From an uncultured Phascolarctobacterium sp. (GTDB lineage Bacteria > Bacillota > Negativicutes > Acidaminococcales > Acidaminococcaceae), in the NCBI GenBank assembly GCA_949299135.1, contig CASFZG010000010.1, positions 11,093 through 75,092 of the forward strand: a stretch of 64,000 nt of DNA. The letters run 5' to 3'. The notes under the pieces were generated by a model, which did no database searches, was not told where the DNA came from, and worked only from the letters and a program-made list of their open reading frames with translations. The translations under genes were made by a program, and so were the position numbers. Positions 1,122 to 9,953 of the stretch are shown one piece after another; position 1 is the stretch's first letter; the number at the start of each line of letters is the position of its first letter.

Positions 1122-1269
1122 TCCCCTCATTCAGCCCCTTATATATTGTTCCTGTTCAAGAACACTATACTCTTTTTTCAAAAAGTTGTCAAGGGCTTAC
1201 TGAAAAAATATAAAAACAGCAGCGCCGCACATTATGCCGACACTGCTGTTCTTTTATTTCTCACAAGGC

Positions 1270-1533
1270 TTACGCAGATTTTTCTTCTTCGTCTTTATCA
1301 AGCTCTTTTTCTATCAGGGCATTTATTTCCGCAACGCTTAACGATTCTGTTCCGTCTTGTCTTTTATATTCTTCTTCAAGTATAACATTTGCAAGTTTTA
1401 AGACCTTGTCACGAGCCGCAAACGCTTTCGGATGCATTACTACAACTTCCGGCGTACCGTTTTTGGTAATATAAACAGGCTCACCGGTTCTGCGTGCCAA
1501 TTCAGCGATATATTTGTAATCAAAGCGCAGCAT
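1270..1533 (-). CDS. Phd/YefM-family antitoxin paralog (copy 2); homology extends upstream to an ATA at 1557
   Basis: IAELARRTGEPVYITKNGTPEVVVM is the Phd/YefM core. It aligns along its full length with the ORF at 1886-2152. Confidence 0.75.
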   Translation of the reverse strand: MLRFDYKYIAELARRTGEPVYITKNGTPEVVVMHPKAFAARDKVLKLANVILEEEYKRQDGTESLSVAEINALIEKELDKDEEEKSA

Positions 1534-1578
1534 CGTCGCCGGTTTTATATAAATTATCTTAAAATCCCCTTCCGACTT

Positions 1579-1896
1579 TTATCTTCTGGCAAAAATTTCA
1601 GGATATTCACTATCCTCGTGCGCAATGTGGTAAACATAAATTATGTCTTCTATCTTTTTGCAGATACAAATATATGCGCCGCTTCTGTAAAACCTGAAAT
1701 GGCGGCTGTTTAGCGGTTCGTACTTTATAACCTCTGCCGCCGGGTAAAACAATGCCAGTTCTTTCAAATCACGAATTATTTTTGTAATTATTTTATGCGC
1801 TTCCTCCTGCGGAATATTACGCCGCCAGTATGCGCAAATATTTTGCAAGTCATCGACTGCCCGCCGTAAAAATCTTACAGATGCCTTACCTGTCAT
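1579..1896 (-). CDS. RelE/ParE-superfamily toxin
   Basis: 105 aa, VRFLRRAVDDLQNI..Y......A.KII.KI...L..L..YP...FRFYRSGAYICI.K.....IYVYHIAH. Overlaps the upstream antitoxin. Confidence 0.75.
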   Translation of the reverse strand: MTGKASVRFLRRAVDDLQNICAYWRRNIPQEEAHKIITKIIRDLKELALFYPAAEVIKYEPLNSRHFRFYRSGAYICICKKIEDIIYVYHIAHEDSEYPEIFARR

Positions 1897-2152
1897 TAAA
1901 TTTTTTCAGCACAGCCTCCGCTTCTTCAATGCTTAAATCTCCCGCTTCCCGTAATCTTTCAAGATCCCCGCTTAACACAATATCAGAAAGCTTAATCACC
2001 TGTTCGCGCTCCTGAAACGCATCAAAATCCATCAAGACAAGTTCCGGAATATCTTTTCTGGTAATATAAACAGGCTCGCCGGTTTTACGTGCTAATTCAG
2101 CAATCCGGTTATAATCGGTGCGCAGACGTGTCGCCGGTTGAACTAAAGCCAT
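1886..2152 (-). CDS. Phd/YefM-family antitoxin (copy 1)
   Basis: QPATRLRTDYNRIAELARKTGEPVYITRKDIPELVLMDFDAF. A GGGAGG RBS precedes the ATG at 2152. Confidence 0.8.
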   Translation of the reverse strand: MALVQPATRLRTDYNRIAELARKTGEPVYITRKDIPELVLMDFDAFQEREQVIKLSDIVLSGDLERLREAGDLSIEEAEAVLKKFNDR

Positions 2153-2183
2153 GCCCATCCTCCCTTCTGTCATCAAAATTTCC

Positions 2184-2207
2184 TTCTCTGTCTTAATCGA
2201 CAGAGAA
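2184..2207. promoter_or_regulatory. Putative TA autorepression operator
   Basis: Perfect 9-bp inverted repeat TTCTCTGTC-ttaatc-GACAGAGAA just upstream of the antitoxin. Confidence 0.45.
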
Positions 2208-2373
2208 CAGGCAAGATTTTAACATGGATTCAATAGGTTTGTAAAGAGGTTTTATAAAAATTTTTATAAAATAACTCAGTATTTAGAGTCTTATTAACTA
2301 TTGTTTTGTGTTTTATAAAATATAATTAATGCTTTTGGTTGTACAAAAGCTCCTCTAATATTAAAAATTATAC

Positions 2374-2583
2374 TTGCTTTACTGTTTTAAATACATAAAA
2401 CACAGGATACAAAGAAAGCAAAAAAGTACACCCCCAAGCAGTACATATATCGTAAACAACCTAGCAACCATTCTCAATATCGGCCGCAGCTCGGTCTATA
2501 AACTGGTAAACTCCAGATTGTTCAAAGCAATACATATCTTCAAAAAGTCTTTTGAGGATTTGCTAAATGGGCAGAAGGGCTGA
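2374..2583 (+). pseudogene. Degenerate excisionase-like helix-turn-helix (HTH_17/Xis-type) gene
   Basis: TYIVNNLATILNIGRSSVYKLVNSRLFKAIHI-FKKSFEDLL resembles MerR-like Xis HTH proteins. It lacks the usual G..IRI segment and has no good RBS or start. Confidence 0.5.
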
Positions 2584-2680
2584 ACGAAAAAACTGAATTA
2601 AAAGTATAAGCGGCTGCAAAATAAACTCTGGCAGCCTCCTTATATTAAGCATTTACAAAACGTATATTTCCCATTTGTGT

Positions 2681-2709
2681 TTGCTGCTAAAAAGAACGTA
2701 TGATATAAA
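2681..2709 (+). promoter_or_regulatory. Sigma-A-type promoter of the methyltransferase operon
   Basis: TTGCTG-17 bp-TATAAA with an extended TG. Confidence 0.5.
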
Positions 2710-2744
2710 AATTATATTATTATTTGATGCCAGGAGGTGTAACC

Positions 2745-4178
2745 ATGCCATATAATGCAATAGATTTGTTTTCTGGATGCGGTGGAATGACAGAAGGTTT
2801 AATACACGCAGGTTTTCGTGTTATAGCTGCTGTTGAAATAGATAAATTTGCATCAGAAACCTATATAGCAAATCATAAACGGCATGGTGTAACACTATTT
2901 AAAACAGATATACGGAAACTTCAGCCGGAACAAATACATGCATTATTAGGTGGAGAGCCATTGCATTTGTTAGCTGGTTGCCCGCCGTGCCAAGGTTTTT
3001 CATCTCTTCGAAAAAAGAACAGAAAAAAATCATCAAAAGATTCGAGAAATAGTCTAATCTTAGAATATTATAGAATGGTTAAAGAACTTAAACCAATTTG
3101 TATAATGCTTGAAAATGTCCCCGGGATTGAAAATTATACTCTTTTTAAAAAAGTATTTTCTCAACTAAAAAAACTTAATTACAATCCGCAATACAAAATT
3201 GTAAATGTTGCGGACTATGGAGTTCCTCAAAGGAGAAAACGCCTAGTTATGACCGGGTCTTTGCTAGGCCCCATTGATATATCGGAAGGAAATTCCAGGC
3301 TTTTCACAGTTCGTGATTATATTGGAAATTTAGAAAATGTTGAAATGACAACCGACCCTGTTCATCGTCGGTATCCACACCACTCTGAAGCGGTAATGGA
3401 AAGAATCCGGCTTACTCCGCCTAATGGAGGAAGCCGACGAGATTTGCCGGATTGCTATACACTTAACTGTCATCGCAAAGAAGGTGTTGGATTTAACGAT
3501 ATATACGGAAGATTACGTTGGGATGATGTGTCTTCAACCATTACCGGCGGCTGTCTAAATCCCTCCAAAGGAAGATTTCTTCATCCAGAGGAAAATAGAT
3601 GCATTACTGCTAGAGAAGCAGCGCTTCTTCAAACTTTTAGGAAAACGTATATATTTCCGGAGGATATACCGCTTACACATCTATCGCTCATGATTGGAAA
3701 TGCACTTCCTCCGGTTTTTTGTGAAGCACAGTGTGCAAATATTCACAGAAAGTTAGATGAAATATTTATGTCTGATATTTTTGATGTAGATAAGCGATCC
3801 GAAATAATGAAGAAAATTAAAAATAAAAACACTACTCCTGAACTTTTTATCCGCAAAATATTAACATCGTTAGGATATAAATATCGCTTATCTACCAAAC
3901 AACTTAATTGTAAACCAGACATAATTTTTCCATCTAAAAAGAAAGTAATTTTTGTTAATGGATGCTTTTGGCACGGACATAATTGCAAACGAGGCTCTCT
4001 CCCAAAAACTAATCAAGAATTTTGGGAAAGCAAAATACATAAAAATATCATAAGAGATCAAAAAAATTATGAAGAATGCACGCAAAAAGGTTGGGACTAT
4101 TTAGTGATATGGCAATGTGAAATAAAGGTATCCAATGTTGAAAAATTGGAAAAACAACTTTCAAACTTCTTACAATAG
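2745..4178 (+). CDS. dcm-vsr: DNA (cytosine-5) methyltransferase fused in frame to a Vsr very-short-patch-repair endonuclease
   Basis: C5-MTase motifs: I DLFSGCGG, IV GCPPCQGFS, VI ENV, VIII QRRKR, IX ITAREAALLQTF, X IGNA. From Met at 3768, in the same frame: MSDIFDVDKRSEIM..IK.KNT.PEL...PDI.F...K.VIFVNGCFWHGH.C...PKTN.EFW..KI..N..RD...GW..LVIWQCE (Vsr). An AGGAGG RBS precedes 2745. Confidence 0.9.
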   Translation: MPYNAIDLFSGCGGMTEGLIHAGFRVIAAVEIDKFASETYIANHKRHGVTLFKTDIRKLQPEQIHALLGGEPLHLLAGCPPCQGFSSLRKKNRKKSSKDSRNSLILEYYRMVKELKPICIMLENVPGIENYTLFKKVFSQLKKLNYNPQYKIVNVADYGVPQRRKRLVMTGSLLGPIDISEGNSRLFTVRDYIGNLENVEMTTDPVHRRYPHHSEAVMERIRLTPPNGGSRRDLPDCYTLNCHRKEGVGFNDIYGRLRWDDVSSTITGGCLNPSKGRFLHPEENRCITAREAALLQTFRKTYIFPEDIPLTHLSLMIGNALPPVFCEAQCANIHRKLDEIFMSDIFDVDKRSEIMKKIKNKNTTPELFIRKILTSLGYKYRLSTKQLNCKPDIIFPSKKKVIFVNGCFWHGHNCKRGSLPKTNQEFWESKIHKNIIRDQKNYEECTQKGWDYLVIWQCEIKVSNVEKLEKQLSNFLQ

Positions 4179-4195
4179 CAGAAGGAGAGCACTTT

Positions 4196-6428
4196 ATGAC
4201 TAGCGCAAAAGTTTTAGAACAATATTTAACCGAAGAGCAACGGCTAGCTGTTCTTGACTCTCACAGAGATATTTTATGCTTGGCGAGGCGCAGATGTAAA
4301 TAATATTTTGAGTTTTCAAGAACGATATCCTGAAAGTAGTACCCACATTTTAAGCACAAATTTTCGAAGCACGGAGGCGATCGTTAAGACATCTGATGCA
4401 TTTATTCAGCAAGAGTTAAGTGCTGCTCGATATACCAAAAATCCCTCTTCCCATAGCGATGGAAACATACAAGATTTTCGATCTTTGTGGTTTGCTACAC
4501 GCGAAGATGAAGCATCTTGGGTTGCCCAAAGAATTCATGACCTTTTAGGTACAAAATATATAGAATATAACGCAGATGGAACAATAAGGGAAGAACGTGG
4601 ATTAACTCCTGCAGATTTCGCAGTGCTTTTTAGATCAATTAAACGGAGTTATAACCCTCAAAACCTTACCCATCGCCATGTCGAGTTTACAAATGCGCTT
4701 CGGGCAATGGGAGTTCCATATACTCTTGAAGCAGAAGGGGGAATTTTTGAACGTCCCCATGCTGTTGCAATACGCGATACTATGGAACTCCTACGTGAAC
4801 CTGCACCTACAAGAGAAAAAGTACGTTATCTGTTTGACCAAGAAATCTTGCCTAATTTTCCTCGTGCAGATTTTAATGAATTATCAAGAGTACTATCCGA
4901 CTGGAATTTACTCATACACACCCCCGCCGGAGGCGCTCGCAGAAAAGTTTACAAGAGTTACTTCATCAAATTTTGCAAGCATTTGGCTCCGAACGATACG
5001 ATTTTAGTGACATTGTTCTCCGTGATTTAGGAGTCTTTAGCAAAATAATTCTTGATATCGAAAAAGTATATGTAAAGCATAAACTCCCCGTCAAGATATC
5101 GGGAAATCCTAAATTTTCTGTCAAATATTGCTGAAACAGGATATGATGTAGGCACTATGGATGTTGTAGCCCGTCCTGATGCTGTTACAATATCTACGAT
5201 TCACAAAATGAAAGGATTGGAATATCCTGTTGTTTTCATCGTTGATGTTGTAAACCGCCGGTTTCCTGCAGACAAAAGTACTTACTCCAGGTGGCTGCCG
5301 GCAGAATTGATGAAAGAGCCTATACGGAGAGGAGCTTATTGCACGACACGTCAAGATGAAGCCAGACTATTTTATACAGCCATGACCCGGGCTAAACGCT
5401 TTTTGTATATTTCTGGAGCTGCTCAGCAACCAGATGCAAAAAGGCCTAAACGCCCCTCAGATTTTAAAGTACGCATTGATAATACGGGAATTTCAAGCGA
5501 TATAACTTTACCTGATAACCTTGAATATATTGACCAAAAACGCAGAATTGACGAAACAATATTGCCGACAAGCTATTCAGATATTAAGGAATATCTTATA
5601 TGTCCAATGGGTTACAAATTAAAAAAACTATTTGGATTTAATCCTGCTGTACCTGAATTGTTTGGATTCGGCTTAACTACGCATACAATTATTGAAAGGT
5701 TGCATCAGAAAAATCCCGGCAGGGCTCCTACGCCACAAGAGGTAACCGATTTGGTTGCATCCACTTTTCATCTTAAGCACATTTTCCAAAGCAATGATAC
5801 GCTCCATAATCCGGGTCCATATGAACGGGCATTTAACAGCGCTACAAAAATTGCTCAAAATTATGTCTCCTCTTTTGGACAAGACTTTGAAAGACTAAGA
5901 GAGGATGAGGCCAGATTTGAAATAACCATCGGACAAGCTATGGTCTCAGGAGCTATCGATTTATTGCTGAAACGAGATGAACATGGTAACATTTTGGATT
6001 CTCATGTCATTGACTTCAAATCTTTGGATGCGCCGGAAGATGATACACCAAATGATTGGATTGATTTATCGTTACAAGTTCAGCTATATGCCTATGCAGC
6101 CAATGAAGTCTTAGGCAAGAATGCAAAAACAGGATCAGTGCATTTATTAAAAGAACAGGATGTAAATGCAAGAGTTGATGTCCCAGTTACAGATTGTGCT
6201 ATATCTGCAGCTATTGATAATATTAACTGGGCCGTTGAACGCATACTAAAAAACGATTTTCCCATGCGGCCTTGCCGCAAAAAATGCGACCATTGTGATG
6301 TAAGACGAATCTGTCCCAAGGTTGCACAGAAATTTACTTCGGATGCGGTTCCCCCTCCTATACATGTTCCAACACAATCTGGTCAGGCTCAAATTAAGGC
6401 ATTTAGTGAGTTTGACGAGCAAGAATAG
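4196..6428 (+). pseudogene. UvrD/Rep (SF1A) helicase fused to a C-terminal PD-(D/E)xK RecB/AddB-type nuclease; disrupted
   Basis: The start MTSAKVLEQYLTEEQRLAVLDSHRDILCLA (Q-motif) jumps directly to YAWRGAD (motif III). Retained: LSTNFRS, AVLFRS, TIHKMKGLEYPVVF, EARLFYTAMTRAK. Nuclease motifs: SYSDI..Y..CP, GAIDLL, VIDFKS, QVQLYA, C..C..C.....C. Frameshifts at ~4950 and ~5075. Motifs I, Ia and II are absent. Confidence 0.85.
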
Positions 6429-6479
6429 CGAGTGTGTTTTAATTGTAATTCATTTTTGTTTATTTTATTCTTCTACAGC

Positions 6480-7064
6480 AGCCCCTTTCCAGGGGCTCTC
6501 TATTTTTTACTTACTTCTCAAACGGATCTACCAATTCTTTTAATACTAATTGATTATTAAGTTGGGCTTCCTGTAATTGTTCCGCTATGTAATTATTTAT
6601 TACTTTCTCGTTCCTCCTAACCCTATCTACTTAATAACCTTTACACCAAAACTATTTCTGCATTTATGTTTCAACTCCCTCATTTTTCATGTATCATCAA
6701 GCTGCTTTTCCCTTTGAGAAATCCCATAAACCACGATACTGCCATTTTAGGCGGTATTTCTACTACCCATATGCACATGATCAGGGCAAACTTCGGCTTC
6801 TATAATGTTTACGCCCTTTCATTTGCATAATTCTCTTAATATTTTACCTATTTCTAATTTCTTTTCTTCTATACTTTAGTGCAAACACTATATGGTATTT
6901 GCAGTTCTATTTTTTGTGTGATAAACTATGAATGTCTTTTATGACAAATTCCTCCTTTGATATTTTGCGATTGGCAGACCGCAAATTTATTTTATCAAAG
7001 GAAGAATTTTTATTACCTTTTCTTTATCGCTTAAGCTTTCCGGTACCCCGCGTCTAAAGCGAGG
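6480..7064 (-). mobile_element. Decayed IS200/IS605-family insertion sequence (IS200 type, tnpA only)
   Basis: A tnpA relic at 6511-6942 is flanked by hairpins AGCCCCT-ttcc-AGGGGCT (6480-6497) and CCCCGC-gtctaaa-GCGAGG (7046-7064). Confidence 0.8.
6511..6942 (-). pseudogene. tnpA: IS200-family Y1 (HUH) transposase pseudogene
   Basis: Manual translation across stops and frameshifts: (ATA)KDIHSLSHKK*NCKYHIVFALKYRRK..EI.KILRELCK*KGVNIIEAEVCPDHVHM.VEIPPKMAVSWFMGFLKGKSSLMIHEK...VDRVRRNEKVINNYIAEQL...KELVDPFEK*. Contains the HUH motif HVH and the catalytic Y. Confidence 0.85.
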
Positions 7065-7076
7065 TTTTCTATATAC

Positions 7077-7106
7077 AAAAATCCCCCGCTTTTAGCGGGG
7101 GATTTT
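7077..7106. terminator. Bidirectional intrinsic terminator
   Basis: AAAAATCCCCCGC-tttta-GCGGGGGATTTT. Confidence 0.75.
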
Positions 7107-7120
7107 GTTTTAACCGTAAA

Positions 7121-8518
7121 TTATACGTTGAATACTTTGCCCGGGTTCAGGATGCATTTCGGGTCAAGCGCTTTTTTGATGGCGCGCATCATTTTCATTT
7201 CCACGGGGTCGGTGTATTTTTCCATAGCAGGCAGCTTCTTCGCGCCGATGCCGTGTTCGCCGCTCAGGCGTCCGCCAAGGCTGTAAACATAGGCATATGC
7301 TTCGGCGTGGAATTCGCTGAGCTGTTTTTCCCATTCTTCGTCGCTCAAATCGCATTTCAGAATCTGGAAATGCAGGTTGCCGTCACCGGCATGAGCCAGG
7401 CACAGCAGCTTAAAGCTGTATTTTTTGGAAACTTCGTTCAAATGCTCAATGCATTCGGCAATTTTATCAACCGGCACAACAAGGTCGTCGGAGGTGCTGA
7501 TTAAGCTCAGCACACGGGTGGATTCCAGGCAGTTGCGGCGGATTTTCCAAACGCGTTCGTCTGCTTCCAGTACGTCAGTCGCTCCGCTGGCAGTGCAAAT
7601 TTCGTCCAGCTGTTCCATCTTGCTTTCCAGCTCATCCTCGCTAAAGGTTTCCACGGTAATAATTACATAGTAACCGTCTTCGTAATGCGGCAATTTCAGC
7701 TCGCTGTAATCGCTGGCGCTGCGCACAAAGCCGTTGTCCATAAATTCAACGCTGGTCGGGTTCAAACCGGCTTTAATCAAATTCGGCACAACGCCGATTG
7801 CTTTATCAAGTTCGGTAAAGATTGCCAGAATATCCAGCTTGTACGGGCACAGCGGCAAAAGTTTCAGGCTTGCTTTGGTGATAACGCCCAAAGTGCCTTC
7901 GCTGCCCATGATAAGCTGTTCAAGGCAATAACCGGTACTGTTCTTTTTCAGCGTCGAGCCGAGCGTTACGATATCGCCGGTCGGGGTAACGGCTTCGATA
8001 GAATAAACCTGATTGCGGGTCGTGCCGTAGCGCACAGCCTTGTTGCCGCCGGCATTGGTAGCGATGTTGCCGCCGATAAGGCAGCTGTCGGCGCTGCACG
8101 GATCGCCTGCGTACAAAAAGCCTTCTTTGTTGGCATATTCCTGAATTTCCAGCGTTCTGGCACCGGCTTCAACAACCATGTACATGCCTTCCTTGTTCAA
8201 CTCAAGGATTTTGTCCATGCGTTCCATCAGCATTACAATGCCGCCGCAAACGGGCACTGCGCCGCAGGATACGCTGGTACCGGCGCTGCGCGGGGTAACG
8301 GGCACGTCAAATTCGTTGGCAATTTTCATAACAGCCGCAACTTCTTCGGTGTTGGCCGGGGCAACTACAACCTCCGGCAGATGATGGTAGTGCGGGTCGG
8401 TTTCCTCGTCGGTTTTGTATCTGTCCAGAACTTCGGGGTCGGTCATTACGTTTTCACTGCCCACTGCTTTACGCAGAGCCTCCAATACTTCTTCGGTGAC
8501 CGGTTTGTAATTCATCAT
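7121..8518 (-). CDS. FAD-binding oxidoreductase (GlcD/D-lactate dehydrogenase-like, VAO family), paralog 2
   Basis: P.VVVAP...EEVA, RSAGTS..GA, GGNIATNAGG, GSEGTLGVIT, HAGDGNLH, SGEHGIG, DPKCILNPGK. Confidence 0.9.
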   Translation of the reverse strand: MMNYKPVTEEVLEALRKAVGSENVMTDPEVLDRYKTDEETDPHYHHLPEVVVAPANTEEVAAVMKIANEFDVPVTPRSAGTSVSCGAVPVCGGIVMLMERMDKILELNKEGMYMVVEAGARTLEIQEYANKEGFLYAGDPCSADSCLIGGNIATNAGGNKAVRYGTTRNQVYSIEAVTPTGDIVTLGSTLKKNSTGYCLEQLIMGSEGTLGVITKASLKLLPLCPYKLDILAIFTELDKAIGVVPNLIKAGLNPTSVEFMDNGFVRSASDYSELKLPHYEDGYYVIITVETFSEDELESKMEQLDEICTASGATDVLEADERVWKIRRNCLESTRVLSLISTSDDLVVPVDKIAECIEHLNEVSKKYSFKLLCLAHAGDGNLHFQILKCDLSDEEWEKQLSEFHAEAYAYVYSLGGRLSGEHGIGAKKLPAMEKYTDPVEMKMMRAIKKALDPKCILNPGKVFNV

Positions 8519-8549: not shown

Positions 8550-9953
8550 TTAATCCATGTTAAAAATCTTGCCGGGGTTCAAAATGCATTTCGGGTCCAT
8601 TGCTTTTTTAATGGTACGCATTAAGTTCAGTTCGCCCGGGCGGGTATATTTTTCCATTTCTTTCAGCTTCTTCGCGCCGATGCCGTGTTCGCCCGCAAGG
8701 CGTCCGCCGATGCTGTAAGCGTAGGTATAAACCTCGTCGTGGAAAGCCTGTACGTTCTGTTCCCATTCTTCGTCGGTCAAATCGCATTTGCACAGTACAA
8801 TGTGCAGGTTGCCGTCGCCGACATGGGCGCAGATAAGCGGCGTAAACGGATATTTTTCGCCGGTTTTCATAACAAATTTAACCGCATCGGCAACTTTATC
8901 GCGCGGCACAACAACGTCGTCCGTCAGGGATACAAGGCTGATAAGGCGCACGCTTTCCTGGCAGTTGCGGCGCATTTTCCAGATGCGCTCGTCGGCTTCC
9001 AGCACTTCCACAGCGCCTGCTTCGGTGCAAAGCTCGTCAAGGCGTTCCATCTTCATATCCAGCTCGTCCTCGTTGTAGGTTTCAACGGTAACGATAACGT
9101 AAATGCCGTCCTCATAATGCGGCACGTTTTTGTATTCGCAGTAATCCGCAGTGGTGCGCACATATGTGTTGTCCATGTATTCAATGCTGGTCGGGTCAAT
9201 GCCCGCTTTTAAAAGCAGCGGTACAAGGTCAATAGCCTTGTCCGGGTCGGTAAACACGGCCACAAGGTCAAATTTGTACGGGCACAGCGGCAAAAGTTTC
9301 AAGGTAGCTTTGGTAATAATGCCCAGCGTGCCTTCGCTGCCCATAATCAGCTGCTCCAGGCAGTAACCGGTCGAGCATTTTTTCAAACGCGCGCCAACTT
9401 CAATAATTTCGCCCGTCGGGCTGACAAATTCAATTTCGTGTACCTGGTCGCGGGTAGTGCCGTAACGCACAGCTTTGTTGCCGCCCGCATTGGTTGCCAG
9501 GTTGCCGCCGATAAGGCAGCTGTCGGCGCTGCACGGGTCGCCTGCGTACAGATAGCCTGCTTCGTTGGCCATCTTTTGAATATCAATCGTCGGCACGCCT
9601 GCTTCCGTAACAAGGTACATGCCTTCGGTGTTCAGCTCCAGCACTTTGTTCAGACGTTCCATCAAAAGCACAATGCCGCCGTAAACCGGGATAGCGCCGT
9701 CGGCAAGGCTGGTGCCTGCACTGCGCACGGTTACAGGCACGTCAAATTTATTGGCAAGCTTCATAATTTCCGCAATTTCTTCGGCGTTAGCCGGTTTAAC
9801 AACAACTTCCGGCTTGTGGAACTTGCGGCAGTCGGTTTCCTCGTCGGTCTGATAGTGTTCCAATGTTTCGGCGTCATTCAGCACATATTCAGCGCCCACA
9901 ACGCCTTTTAATGCTTCAATTACTTCTTCGGTAACGGGAGCATAAGTTTTCAT
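8550..9953 (-). CDS. FAD-binding oxidoreductase (GlcD/D-lactate dehydrogenase-like), paralog 1
   Basis: Same motifs as the neighbour (GGNLATNAGG, GSEGTLGIIT, HVGDGNLH, GEHGIG). Tandem duplicate. Confidence 0.9.
   Translation of the reverse strand: MKTYAPVTEEVIEALKGVVGAEYVLNDAETLEHYQTDEETDCRKFHKPEVVVKPANAEEIAEIMKLANKFDVPVTVRSAGTSLADGAIPVYGGIVLLMERLNKVLELNTEGMYLVTEAGVPTIDIQKMANEAGYLYAGDPCSADSCLIGGNLATNAGGNKAVRYGTTRDQVHEIEFVSPTGEIIEVGARLKKCSTGYCLEQLIMGSEGTLGIITKATLKLLPLCPYKFDLVAVFTDPDKAIDLVPLLLKAGIDPTSIEYMDNTYVRTTADYCEYKNVPHYEDGIYVIVTVETYNEDELDMKMERLDELCTEAGAVEVLEADERIWKMRRNCQESVRLISLVSLTDDVVVPRDKVADAVKFVMKTGEKYPFTPLICAHVGDGNLHIVLCKCDLTDEEWEQNVQAFHDEVYTYAYSIGGRLAGEHGIGAKKLKEMEKYTRPGELNLMRTIKKAMDPKCILNPGKIFNMD

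Follow-up and report, generated by a model that had tools for sequence, protein, structure and literature searches.

The locus described here is best explained, with some confidence, as a two-gene cassette that spreads horizontally and has decayed in this copy; a C5 methylase fused to Vsr is paired in it with a helicase-nuclease, and when intact it would on balance act as a methylation-gated, ATP-driven DNA-degrading defence. In the window (the whole 64,000-nt stretch of DNA that was analysed), the methylase gene is preserved and the helicase-nuclease gene is broken. The features of the locus are as follows.

2674–2744, + strand: conserved 5' leader of the cassette, with the ribosome-binding site AGGAGG at 2732–2737; DNA similarity to the cassettes of L004–L007 begins at 2674 (87% identity).
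2745–4178, + strand: intact fusion gene whose product joins a C5 cytosine DNA methyltransferase (aa 1 to ~340) to a Vsr endonuclease for T:G mismatches (aa ~343–477), from Pfam, NCBIfam and the alignment with L004.
4179–4195, + strand: intergenic spacer of 17 nt with AGGAG at 4183–4187; the same 17-nt spacing is found in L004–L011.
4196–4272, + strand: 5' remnant of the helicase-nuclease pseudogene, codons 1–26, ending just before Walker A; its translation, MTSAKVLEQYLTEEQRLAVLDSHRDI, aligns with residues 1–26 of the 976-aa homologues.
4273–4284, + strand: junction of a 701-bp deletion, with imperfect 12-nt microhomology repeats and a frame shift; two BLAST segments against L004 overlap here.
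4285–4950, + strand: second-frame segment of the pseudogene, with motif III (YAWRGAD), motif IV (STNFRST) and the 2B region (Pfam UvrD_C, 4.8e-08; alignment).
4951–5074, + strand: third-frame segment of the pseudogene, at whose end a single inserted base (an additional A, position 5074) restores the previous frame (alignment).
5075–6428, + strand: 3' part of the pseudogene, with motifs V–VI followed by a Cas4/AddB-like PD-(D/E)xK nuclease with a four-Cys signature of the Fe-S type (Pfam).
6480–6497, + strand: terminator-like hairpin and T-run after the operon, with a 7-bp stem (5 G-C pairs) and the tail CTCTATTTTT.

The methylase-Vsr gene agrees with the original prediction. Its 477-aa reading frame runs from the ATG at 2745, behind AGGAGG, to a TAG stop at 4176–4178, and its product matched the Pfam families DNA_methylase (PF00145, 1.4e-56, aa 4–329) and Vsr (PF03852, 1.8e-28, aa 343–416) and scored above the NCBIfam cut-offs for both dcm (TIGR00675) and vsr (TIGR00632). 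The motifs DLFSGCGG, GCPPCQGFS, ENVPG and FVNGCFWHGHNC were all found. The protein is 92% identical to the 477-aa protein of L004 and collinear with it without gaps, with a dN/dS of 0.06. Matches in the PDB cover the catalytic core of the methylase only, and PADLOC returned generic MTase_II, DruM and DrmMII matches for it. An uninformative promoter scan gave 26 matches, against 17 expected.

The helicase-nuclease gene starts where it had been placed, with an ATG at 4196, exactly 17 nt past the methylase-Vsr stop and behind its own AGGAG, and its frame ends after 26 codons. The two BLAST segments that overlap at the junction correspond to L004 4359–4370 and 5060–5071, and relative to the intact homologues the 701-bp deletion has removed codons ~27–260, and with them helicase motifs I (Walker A), Ia and II. 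A further 4 bp (ATCC) are deleted directly after 4950, and the surviving helicase motifs III–VI and the nuclease are scattered over three frames. The 3' part of the pseudogene matched UvrD_C (1.2e-17), PDDEXK_1 (1.7e-21) and Cas_Cas4 (0.0019), and its longest open reading frame (5157–6428, 423 aa) spans the end of UvrD_C and PDDEXK_1, with the nuclease signatures GAIDLL, VIDFKS and QVQLYA and four Cys (ICPMGY; CDHCDVRRIC). The family-invariant D, D/K and Q..Y residues and the four Cys are all kept. The idea of a partner combining SF1A motifs with a PD-(D/E)xK nuclease stands for the nuclease and its four Cys, but not for a complete set of SF1A motifs, since I, Ia and II have been lost and the reading frame is disrupted. 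Because the ATPase motifs are gone, the cassette of this genome cannot work. The dN/dS of the remnants is 0.04–0.11, similar to that of the methylase, which points to recent inactivation, and the gene is, as read from its sequence, a dead, recent pseudogene beside an intact methylase-nickase. Expression of the 423-aa reading frame as a stand-alone nuclease was considered and judged unlikely, since the sole AGGA lies 17 nt before its ATG, and in the intact gene this ATG encodes an internal Met.

The lesions are genuine rather than assembly errors. An intact allele, ~98% identical, is present on contigs collinear with window positions 1149–7261 from three metagenome runs (gut or chicken); the ~701 nt deleted in the window are found on contigs of X5, X7 and X8, and the intact form of the helicase-nuclease was found in X5, X7, X8 and X9. 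The dead allele occurs in three further metagenome runs, X1 and X2 among them. As the source genome is a 40-contig draft, it could be supposed that the breaks are assembly or sequencing errors in a gene that is intact in the organism; this is extremely improbable, because the independent X1 and X2 contigs share all three lesions of the window while differing from it at 27–34 other positions, and because the intact form is also seen separately. Both alleles thus exist as DNA.

In the intact homologues, which reach 92% identity, PF00580, PF13361 and PF12705 are found in one chain of 976 aa. The AlphaFold2 model of the helicase-nuclease (pLDDT 86, pTM 0.83) matches UvrD/PcrA, AddA, RecB and AdnB, and its top full-length structural matches are end-processing helicase-nucleases. 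Neither the model nor the structural comparison revealed a recognisable extra domain, be it for site recognition or for sensing 5mC, and a PDB sequence search found nothing solved closer than PcrA and UvrD. The NCBIfam scores were 148 bits for AddA (cut-off 708) and 110 bits for RecB (cut-off 696). PADLOC gave partial matches to GajB, to an RT-associated helicase and to Cas4.

The association of the two genes extends well beyond this genome. A contig search with generic UvrD peptide patterns returned mostly housekeeping PcrA/UvrD, with helicase-nuclease fusions at ~11 of 80 loci, and for this reason contexts were sampled one protein at a time. Among the 17 distinct contexts so collected, which are a sample and not a census, from Bacillota, Nitrospirales, Dehalococcoidales, Azonexus and one Thermoplasmata archaeon, a C5 methylase adjoins the helicase-nuclease in 16, and Vsr, fused or adjacent, is present in 12; in the other five (L012, L015, L017, L100 and L101) it was not found within ~7 kb. 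The adjacency expected for intact homologues was therefore recovered, and the operon claimed for the window represents a conserved operon-like module. A separate restriction endonuclease, whose constant presence would have spoken against the pair, is missing in most contexts, and L101 is the only one with an HNH enzyme. The identities of methylase and helicase-nuclease drop in step (83/81–86, 72/71–73, 59/55–59 and 48/38–40%), and the partner methylases have a homologous TRD throughout. Because they form one co-diverging lineage in all contexts, a specific partnership is favoured over a generic add-on.

At least nine contexts have the pair by itself, flanked by unrelated genes and travelling as a unit of two genes; lone pairs of this kind occur on mobile elements. 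Across the contexts, neighbours typical of defence islands and mobile elements were found: serine recombinases, TnpV, RepA_N, ParB, ABC-3C, a CARF-kinase candidate, DrmA (734 and 810 bits), DrmB (255 bits), a weak DrmE match, type III Mod/Res and the HNH enzyme. Three times independently (the window, L112 and L113) the helicase-nuclease is broken beside an intact methylase-Vsr, a pattern that resembles the fate of restriction genes. In L006 (6x coverage), a nonsense codon lies in the methylase and the helicase-nuclease is intact, which, if real, would be unexpected for a toxic restriction partner.

The similarity of the window to other copies at the DNA level spans 2674–6423, and the mobile unit is, from this extent, the two genes only. 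The helicase-nuclease family was not found in 40 relatives and was found in 2 of 400 genomes of the phylum; it has about 100 representatives at E≤1e-30. Synteny with genomes of the same genus gave no left border for the island: homology resumes at window position 7077, and the sequence to the left of it maps to other contigs of the relatives (C8 and C12), a rearrangement or a large variable region and not a clean insertion.

Although the original prediction put the system forward as a candidate for an undescribed one, the neighbourhood is known. Hudaiberdiev, Shmakov, Wolf, Terns, Makarova and Koonin (2017; BMC Evol Biol 17:232; PMC5704561) describe a UvrD-Cas4 fusion, in which a Cas4-like nuclease (pfam12705) is joined to a UvrD-like helicase of SF1, beside the cytosine methylase Dcm and often Vsr, for which they predict a defence role; the fusion is also placed beside type III Mod/Res, and an ancillary role is suggested. 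All the elements of that neighbourhood are found here: the fusion (intact in the homologues and decayed in the window), the adjacent C5 methylase and a frequent, though not obligatory, Vsr. The window differs in having methylase and Vsr on a single polypeptide and a helicase-nuclease reduced to a pseudogene. The paper contains no experiment, nor do its passages cited here mention lockstep co-divergence with the methylase, embedding in DISARM-like loci or a two-gene mobile unit, and no experiments on any family member were found in the literature searched.

Comparison with other systems supports the claim that the pair matches no known layout insofar as no PADLOC 2.0 system model fits it; the claim does not extend to all relatives, as homologous pairs lie inside DrmA/DrmB/DrmE loci and a Mod/Res locus. 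Type III R-M (Mod2Res, e.g. EcoP15I) also joins a methyltransferase to one ATP-dependent helicase-nuclease subunit that lacks its own specificity, with the PD-(D/E)xK nuclease carried by the motor subunit. However, type III Mod methylates N6/N4 and carries a TRD of its own, and Res is SF2 helicase-like; neither is found in the window cassette, where the methylase is of the C5 type (PF00145) and the motor is SF1A UvrD-like with a Cas4-type Fe-S nuclease. DISARM class 2 (DrmE, DrmA, DrmB, DrmC and DrmMII) likewise sets a self-marking C5 methylase beside helicase and nuclease effectors, but the window and most cassettes are without DrmA, DrmB and DrmE, and the nuclease is not the PLD-type DrmC. 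No DrmA was found in the whole genome or among the ORFs at window positions 1–12 kb, and solely in L096 and L100 is the homologous pair inside DISARM class 2-like loci, with matches to DrmA, DrmB (DUF1998) and DrmE.

AddAB, RecBCD and AdnAB share the UvrD-like SF1A motor and the C-terminal RecB-family nuclease, and the four-Cys signature is AddB/Cas4-like; unlike them, the helicase-nuclease is a single chain, with no gene for a partner subunit, and is sporadic, mobile and methylase-linked, not housekeeping, with profile scores far below the cut-offs. In Gabija, GajB is a UvrD-like helicase, and the PADLOC GajB models cover the helicase core only, but GajB has no fused nuclease, Gabija has no methylase, and no GajA (OLD-family ATPase-TOPRIM nuclease) was found beside the window cassette, where Phd/ParE antitoxin-toxin genes, an HTH ORF and an IS remnant lie instead. 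No other ORF lies inside the conserved cassette at 2674–6423, as would be needed for type II R-M, and the reported absence of a type II restriction endonuclease, McrBC and HsdR was confirmed within the cassette. A functional R-M system has modification and nuclease/motor both potentially active: in the window, the stretch from Walker A to motif II is gone and there are three breaks in the frame, whereas in the intact allele of other strains both components are potentially active.

For the intact cassette, we envisage that the C5 methylase would set 5mC on a fixed target motif and so mark host DNA, while the Vsr nickase would repair the T:G mismatches arising from deamination of 5mC. The second gene would produce a 976-aa single chain with an overall shape like AddA, RecB or AdnB, in which an SF1A motor of the UvrD/PcrA type stands in front of a Cas4/AddB-type Fe-S PD-(D/E)xK nuclease. 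This chain may load at nicks or ends of unmarked DNA and then unwind and degrade it, driven by ATP. Since the helicase-nuclease has no DNA-recognition domain of its own, target recognition must come from a partner or neighbour: presumably the co-evolving methylase or the Vsr domain fused to it, in the way that type III Res relies on Mod, or a nuclease encoded nearby (DISARM, type III Res, HNH). In the strain studied here, the microhomology deletion took the ATPase motifs, with the two small indels arising before or after, and left an orphan methylase-nickase.

Several readings of the intact pair have to be weighed. It is possible, and we propose it tentatively, that the cassette is an autonomous ATP-dependent R-M system outside types I–IV, in which the C5 methylase would provide both self-mark and recognition and the SF1 Fe-S helicase-nuclease would processively destroy unmarked DNA; in a more speculative variant, the 5mC motif would be a Chi-like 'self' signal that turns the nuclease off. 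What speaks for defence is the mobile and defence-island contexts, the co-divergence, the repeated loss of the helicase-nuclease and the prediction made in the 2017 paper (PMC5704561). The presence of a repair nickase in 12 of 17 contexts, however, suits a repair role equally well. The pair would then be a self-contained very-short-patch repair kit that restricts nothing: the mobile methylase creates a burden of C-to-T mutations, a nick made by Vsr on the 5' side of the mismatched T lets the helicase-nuclease load, unwind and degrade the T strand, and a polymerase refills the gap, with helicase and exonuclease in one chain, comparable to UvrD plus exonucleases in MutHLS repair. In E. coli, VSP repair uses Pol I. 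Such a kit would account for a partner that is strictly a C5 and not an N6 methylase within the clade (16 of 17 contexts), for the missing recognition domain, expected if Vsr provides the entry nick, and for the tolerated loss of the helicase-nuclease while the methylase-Vsr stays under purifying selection; moreover, in mismatch repair UvrD unwinds from a nick (Iyer et al. 2008). We nevertheless regard it as rather unlikely, because five contexts have no Vsr within ~7 kb, the pair recurs inside bona fide defence loci (DISARM, type III, HNH), a processive RecB/AddA-like nuclease seems too much for a patch of a few nucleotides, and a more distant clade of the same fusion stands beside type III Mod/Res with an N6/N4 methylase (L019; see also PMC5704561).

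The other nucleases present in some loci (HNH, Res, DISARM) also raise the question of whether the pair is accessory rather than autonomous. As a non-autonomous 'executioner', it would turn repairable cuts made by a different system that is sensitive to methylation (DISARM, type III Res, an HNH enzyme or host enzymes) into full degradation, much as RecBCD does after restriction, and the two genes alone would protect little or not at all. Its embedding in DrmA/DrmB, DrmE/DrmA, Mod/Res/Vsr and HNH loci is consistent with this, as are the modelled fold, which is that of end-processing enzymes, and the ancillary role suggested in the 2017 paper (PMC5704561). This is unlikely, given the contexts in which the pair travels alone and the single methylase lineage that accompanies it everywhere. 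Vsr acting as a general nickase on unmethylated sites was kept as a lead and not counted as evidence; the Caulobacter VsrA study supports genotoxicity only at mismatches when methylation is absent.

The module of methylase(-Vsr) and helicase-nuclease is therefore real, and methylation-gated DNA-degrading defence is probably its role. As a compact cassette, the Dcm(-Vsr)/UvrD-Cas4 pair is spread across distant phyla, and it was predicted as a defence component in 2017 (PMC5704561). To this we add a two-gene mobile unit, a single methylase lineage whose divergence parallels that of the helicase-nuclease all the way from Bacillota to an archaeon, repeated embedding in DISARM-like, type III and HNH loci, and one gut species in which the same locus holds either an intact allele or one that was inactivated only recently. 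Because this natural allele pair is available and the cassette is short, a new restriction system and a portable kit for repairing methylation damage can be directly told apart by experiment. For this genome the practical upshot is modest, namely an orphan 5mC methylase-nickase with no working nuclease partner.

Dcm and Vsr also occur together with an ATPase/helicase effector in the MORC/paraMORC neighbourhoods, which were likewise predicted to be R-M-like (Iyer, Abhiman, Aravind 2008; PMC2292703), although those neighbourhoods have a GHKL ATPase (with SF2 helicases) as their effector and not a UvrD-Cas4 helicase-nuclease. A locus of this MORC/paraMORC-Dcm-Vsr type is present elsewhere in this genome (L111).

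The cassette in the window pairs a C5-MTase-Vsr gene with a downstream helicase-nuclease gene, which is RecB/AddA-like and, when intact, encodes 976 aa. Its features are as follows.

2745–4178, + strand: MTase-Vsr open reading frame, 477 aa, with the RBS AGGAGG upstream
4196, + strand: start (ATG) of the helicase-nuclease pseudogene, 17 nt past the MTase-Vsr stop, with AGGAG ahead
4273–4284, + strand: junction of a 701-bp deletion, between two imperfect 12-nt repeats
after 4950, + strand: 4-bp deletion (ATCC)
5074, + strand: 1-bp insertion (A)
6480–6497: terminator-like hairpin downstream of the pseudogene

Residues 1–340 of the MTase-Vsr protein are a C5 cytosine methyltransferase (Pfam PF00145, 1.4e-56; TIGR00675 above cut-off) and residues 343–477 a complete Vsr mismatch endonuclease (PF03852, 1.8e-28; TIGR00632, 139 bits vs. 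a cut-off of 98). The protein is collinear, without gaps, with a 477-aa homologue of 92% identity (dN/dS = 0.06), and retains the catalytic motifs DLFSGCGG, GCPPCQGFS, ENVPG and FVNGCFWHGHNC; judged from its sequence, this gene looks functional. The frame opened by the ATG at 4196, by contrast, closes after 26 codons, and comparison with intact homologues revealed the three lesions listed. The 701-bp deletion takes out codons ~27–260, with Walker A (GSGKS), motif Ia and motif II (DEYQD), and shifts the frame; helicase motifs III–VI are left, together with a complete Cas4/AddB-like PD-(D/E)xK nuclease (PF12705, 1.7e-21). The window locus is dead. The original prediction correctly described the 17-nt spacing, the AGGAG and the nuclease signatures (GAIDLL, VIDFKS, QVQLYA and four Cys), all of which the remnant bears, but its SF1A helicase was overstated, because the ATPase core, from Walker A through motif II, is gone. 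After the Fe-S cysteines there is also a conserved tail (residues 944–976 of the reference protein P0002 in alignment A3; window 6330–6425), modelled at pLDDT ~90, in which F948, P954 and P960 are invariant and F971-S972 near-invariant ('..KAFSEF..'); it may be a partner-binding peptide.

The alleles were surveyed in Logan contigs from public runs. The identical three lesions were present in runs X1, X2 and X4 (one study), and the X1 and X2 contigs differ from the window at 27–34 further positions; the lesions are real. An intact allele, ~98% identical, was found in runs X5, X7, X8 and X9 (three studies, of chicken, bird and gut metagenomes); it has both stretches lost from the window, the ~701 nt and the ATCC, and not the extra A. 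From 1149, the X5 contig is collinear with the window to 6867 and the X7 contig to 7261, and they therefore represent the same locus. Against an intact copy, the pseudogene segments (87–89% identical) gave dN/dS of 0.04–0.11, with no detectable relaxation of selection. Because both alleles occupy one locus and no such relaxation is detectable, the inactivation is a young polymorphism inside one species, in which intact and dead alleles constitute a natural experiment.

Read through, the pseudogene remnants match many 976-aa proteins (identity up to 92%), each with UvrD-helicase, AAA_19, UvrD_C and PDDEXK_1 domains in a single chain. Their NCBIfam scores fall far under the equivalog cut-offs for AddA, RecB and PcrA, and the helicase-nuclease is therefore no housekeeping enzyme. 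In an AlphaFold2 model of an intact member (42-sequence alignment; pLDDT 86, pTM 0.83), the chain consists entirely of motor and nuclease; in Foldseek searches against the PDB, the motor matched UvrD/PcrA and the whole chain AddA, RecB and AdnA/AdnB. No extra DNA-recognition or modified-base-binding domain was visible in the model or these searches.

The linkage supposed by the original prediction was borne out among intact homologues: a C5 methylase directly adjoins the helicase-nuclease in 16 of 17 distinct genomic contexts, and Vsr, either MTase-fused or a separate neighbour, is found in 12. In the exception (L013), the sequence stops 230 bp past a downstream vsr. These contexts range over Bacillota, Nitrospirales, Dehalococcoidales, Azonexus, a deltaproteobacterium and a Thermoplasmata archaeon. 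The partner methylases form a single lineage with a target-recognition region homologous throughout, and identity to the reference drops in parallel for methylase and helicase-nuclease (81–86/83%, 71–73/72%, 55–59/59% and 38–40/48%), which is, at the sequence level, the signature of a specific, long-standing partnership. None of the 40 relatives' genomes searched has the family, and it occurs in 2 of the 400 other genomes examined from the phylum. The close clade, the one linked to Dcm, is small: among 1.8 billion library representatives it comprises just a few full-length clusters at 50% identity. Beyond it lies a larger clade at 30–36% identity. In one locus of a more distant set (L019, 29% identity), the helicase-nuclease adjoins a type III Mod/Res pair.

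DNA similarity of the window to other copies is confined to 2674–6423, so the moving unit is the two genes; the cassette segment has 35–42% G+C vs. ~50% in the flanks. Stand-alone cassettes neighbour serine recombinases, TnpV, RepA_N, ParB and IS elements, as well as toxin-antitoxin genes, ABC-3C systems, a CARF-kinase candidate and Schlafen/Fic-like genes. The CARF-kinase candidate, beside an intact cassette (L098, 11259–14870), is a 1203-aa CARF/kinase/AAA protein and candidate defence gene (PADLOC PDLC01925, 1404 bits), and ABC-3C systems lie beside intact cassettes in L099 (2224–5115; CTD10/MC6/DUF2326) and L097 (9565–12792; CTD6/MC2/AAA_23). Four larger defence loci contain the pair as an integral part.

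L096: DrmA (734 bits) and DrmB (255 bits), followed by MTase-Vsr and helicase-nuclease
L100: helicase-nuclease and MTase, followed by DrmE (weak match) and DrmA (810 bits)
L097: helicase-nuclease and MTase, followed by type III Mod and Res and then Vsr
L101: helicase-nuclease between MTase and HNH REase

DrmA was not found in the window's genome.

Hudaiberdiev et al. (2017; PMC5704561) described exactly such a fusion, named UvrD-Cas4; they showed it to be monophyletic and to recur in two conserved contexts, one with type III Mod/Res, the other with Dcm and, in several loci, Vsr. They concluded that multiple defence systems include UvrD-Cas4, its role probably ancillary. The original prediction had presented 2745–6428 as a candidate undescribed R-M-like defence system; the conserved MTase/helicase-nuclease partnership stands, while a working copy in the window does not, nor does the undescribed status, given the published Dcm (and Vsr) context. 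The window copy adds one decayed member to a kind of system that comparative genomics had described before. In the literature searched, we found no second paper using the term UvrD-Cas4 and no experimental study of the UvrD-Cas4/Dcm cassette, and in PADLOC 2.0 no dedicated model for it. The locus is dead and the idea not new; the system is compact and widespread.

For intact cassettes, the best-supported reading, which we favour somewhat, is that the methylase would mark host DNA and the helicase-nuclease, as a RecB/AddA-like processive degrader, would destroy unmarked DNA. It is supported by the close spacing of the two genes in M-before-R order, by the mobility and the defence-island neighbours, by the co-divergence of the partners and by three independent cases (window, L112 and L113) in which the helicase-nuclease is broken while the MTase-Vsr next to it is intact. 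Because the helicase-nuclease has no recognition module, specificity would have to come from the MTase that co-evolves with it or from the Vsr domain of that MTase, on the model of Mod and Res in type III systems, or from breaks made by a neighbouring nuclease. A methylation-gated role for Vsr is conceivable, since in a Caulobacter study the Vsr-like nuclease VsrA turns genotoxic once cognate methylation is absent. Against methylation-gated degradation stand the lack of experimental support in the literature searched, the absence of a visible sensing domain and L006, a metagenome contig of low (6x) coverage in which the MTase (1113–2546) carries a nonsense codon while the helicase-nuclease downstream is intact. 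A cluster of substitutions immediately ahead of the catalytic PCQ motif accompanies the nonsense codon; if this is no assembly error, it speaks against toxicity of the nuclease.

In the main rival reading, which we consider unlikely, the cassette would be a portable kit for very-short-patch repair, with Vsr making the nick and the helicase-nuclease carrying out the excision. This would account for the strict pairing with C5 methylases and for how often Vsr is present; it leaves unexplained the five Vsr-less contexts and the presence of the pair within DISARM and type III loci. That the helicase-nuclease is a non-autonomous accessory for break processing seems rather improbable.

Directly upstream of the cassette lies a Phd/YefM-ParE-Phd/YefM trio (1270–2176, − strand; Pfam 4.8e-09, 7.5e-06 and 1.2e-06). 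Outside the conserved cassette, a 69-aa ORF (2374–2583, + strand) with a weak HTH_17 (excisionase-type) match under the Pfam cut-off may be a mobile-element remnant. Downstream is a decayed IS200/IS605-family tnpA (6540–6960, − strand; repeat end to 7081), whose motifs KYHIVFALKYRRK, CPDHVHM, IPPKMAVSWFMGFLKGKSSLMIHEK and FWCKGY are scattered over three frames, with stops; the last ~140–180 bp of this element (6900–7081) repeat at contig ends in the window's genome and same-genus genomes. Synteny with the latter starts at 7077, and they keep the tandem paralogues at 7121–8518 and 8550–9953 (− strand; ~466 aa each, ~73% DNA identity).

The window's genome (G000) has a second Dcm and Vsr locus, L111 (contig C8, 4500–16500), with four ORFs, all on the − strand: 1650–2069, 3240–4355, 4292–5371 and 5388–7529. 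It encodes a 712-aa GHKL (HATPase_c_3, MORC-like) ATPase, a C5 MTase (37% identity to that of the window), a separate Vsr and a 358-aa protein with no Pfam match. The arrangement is that of the MORC-Dcm-Vsr context in Iyer et al. (2008), and the locus sits on a synteny break relative to a same-genus genome.
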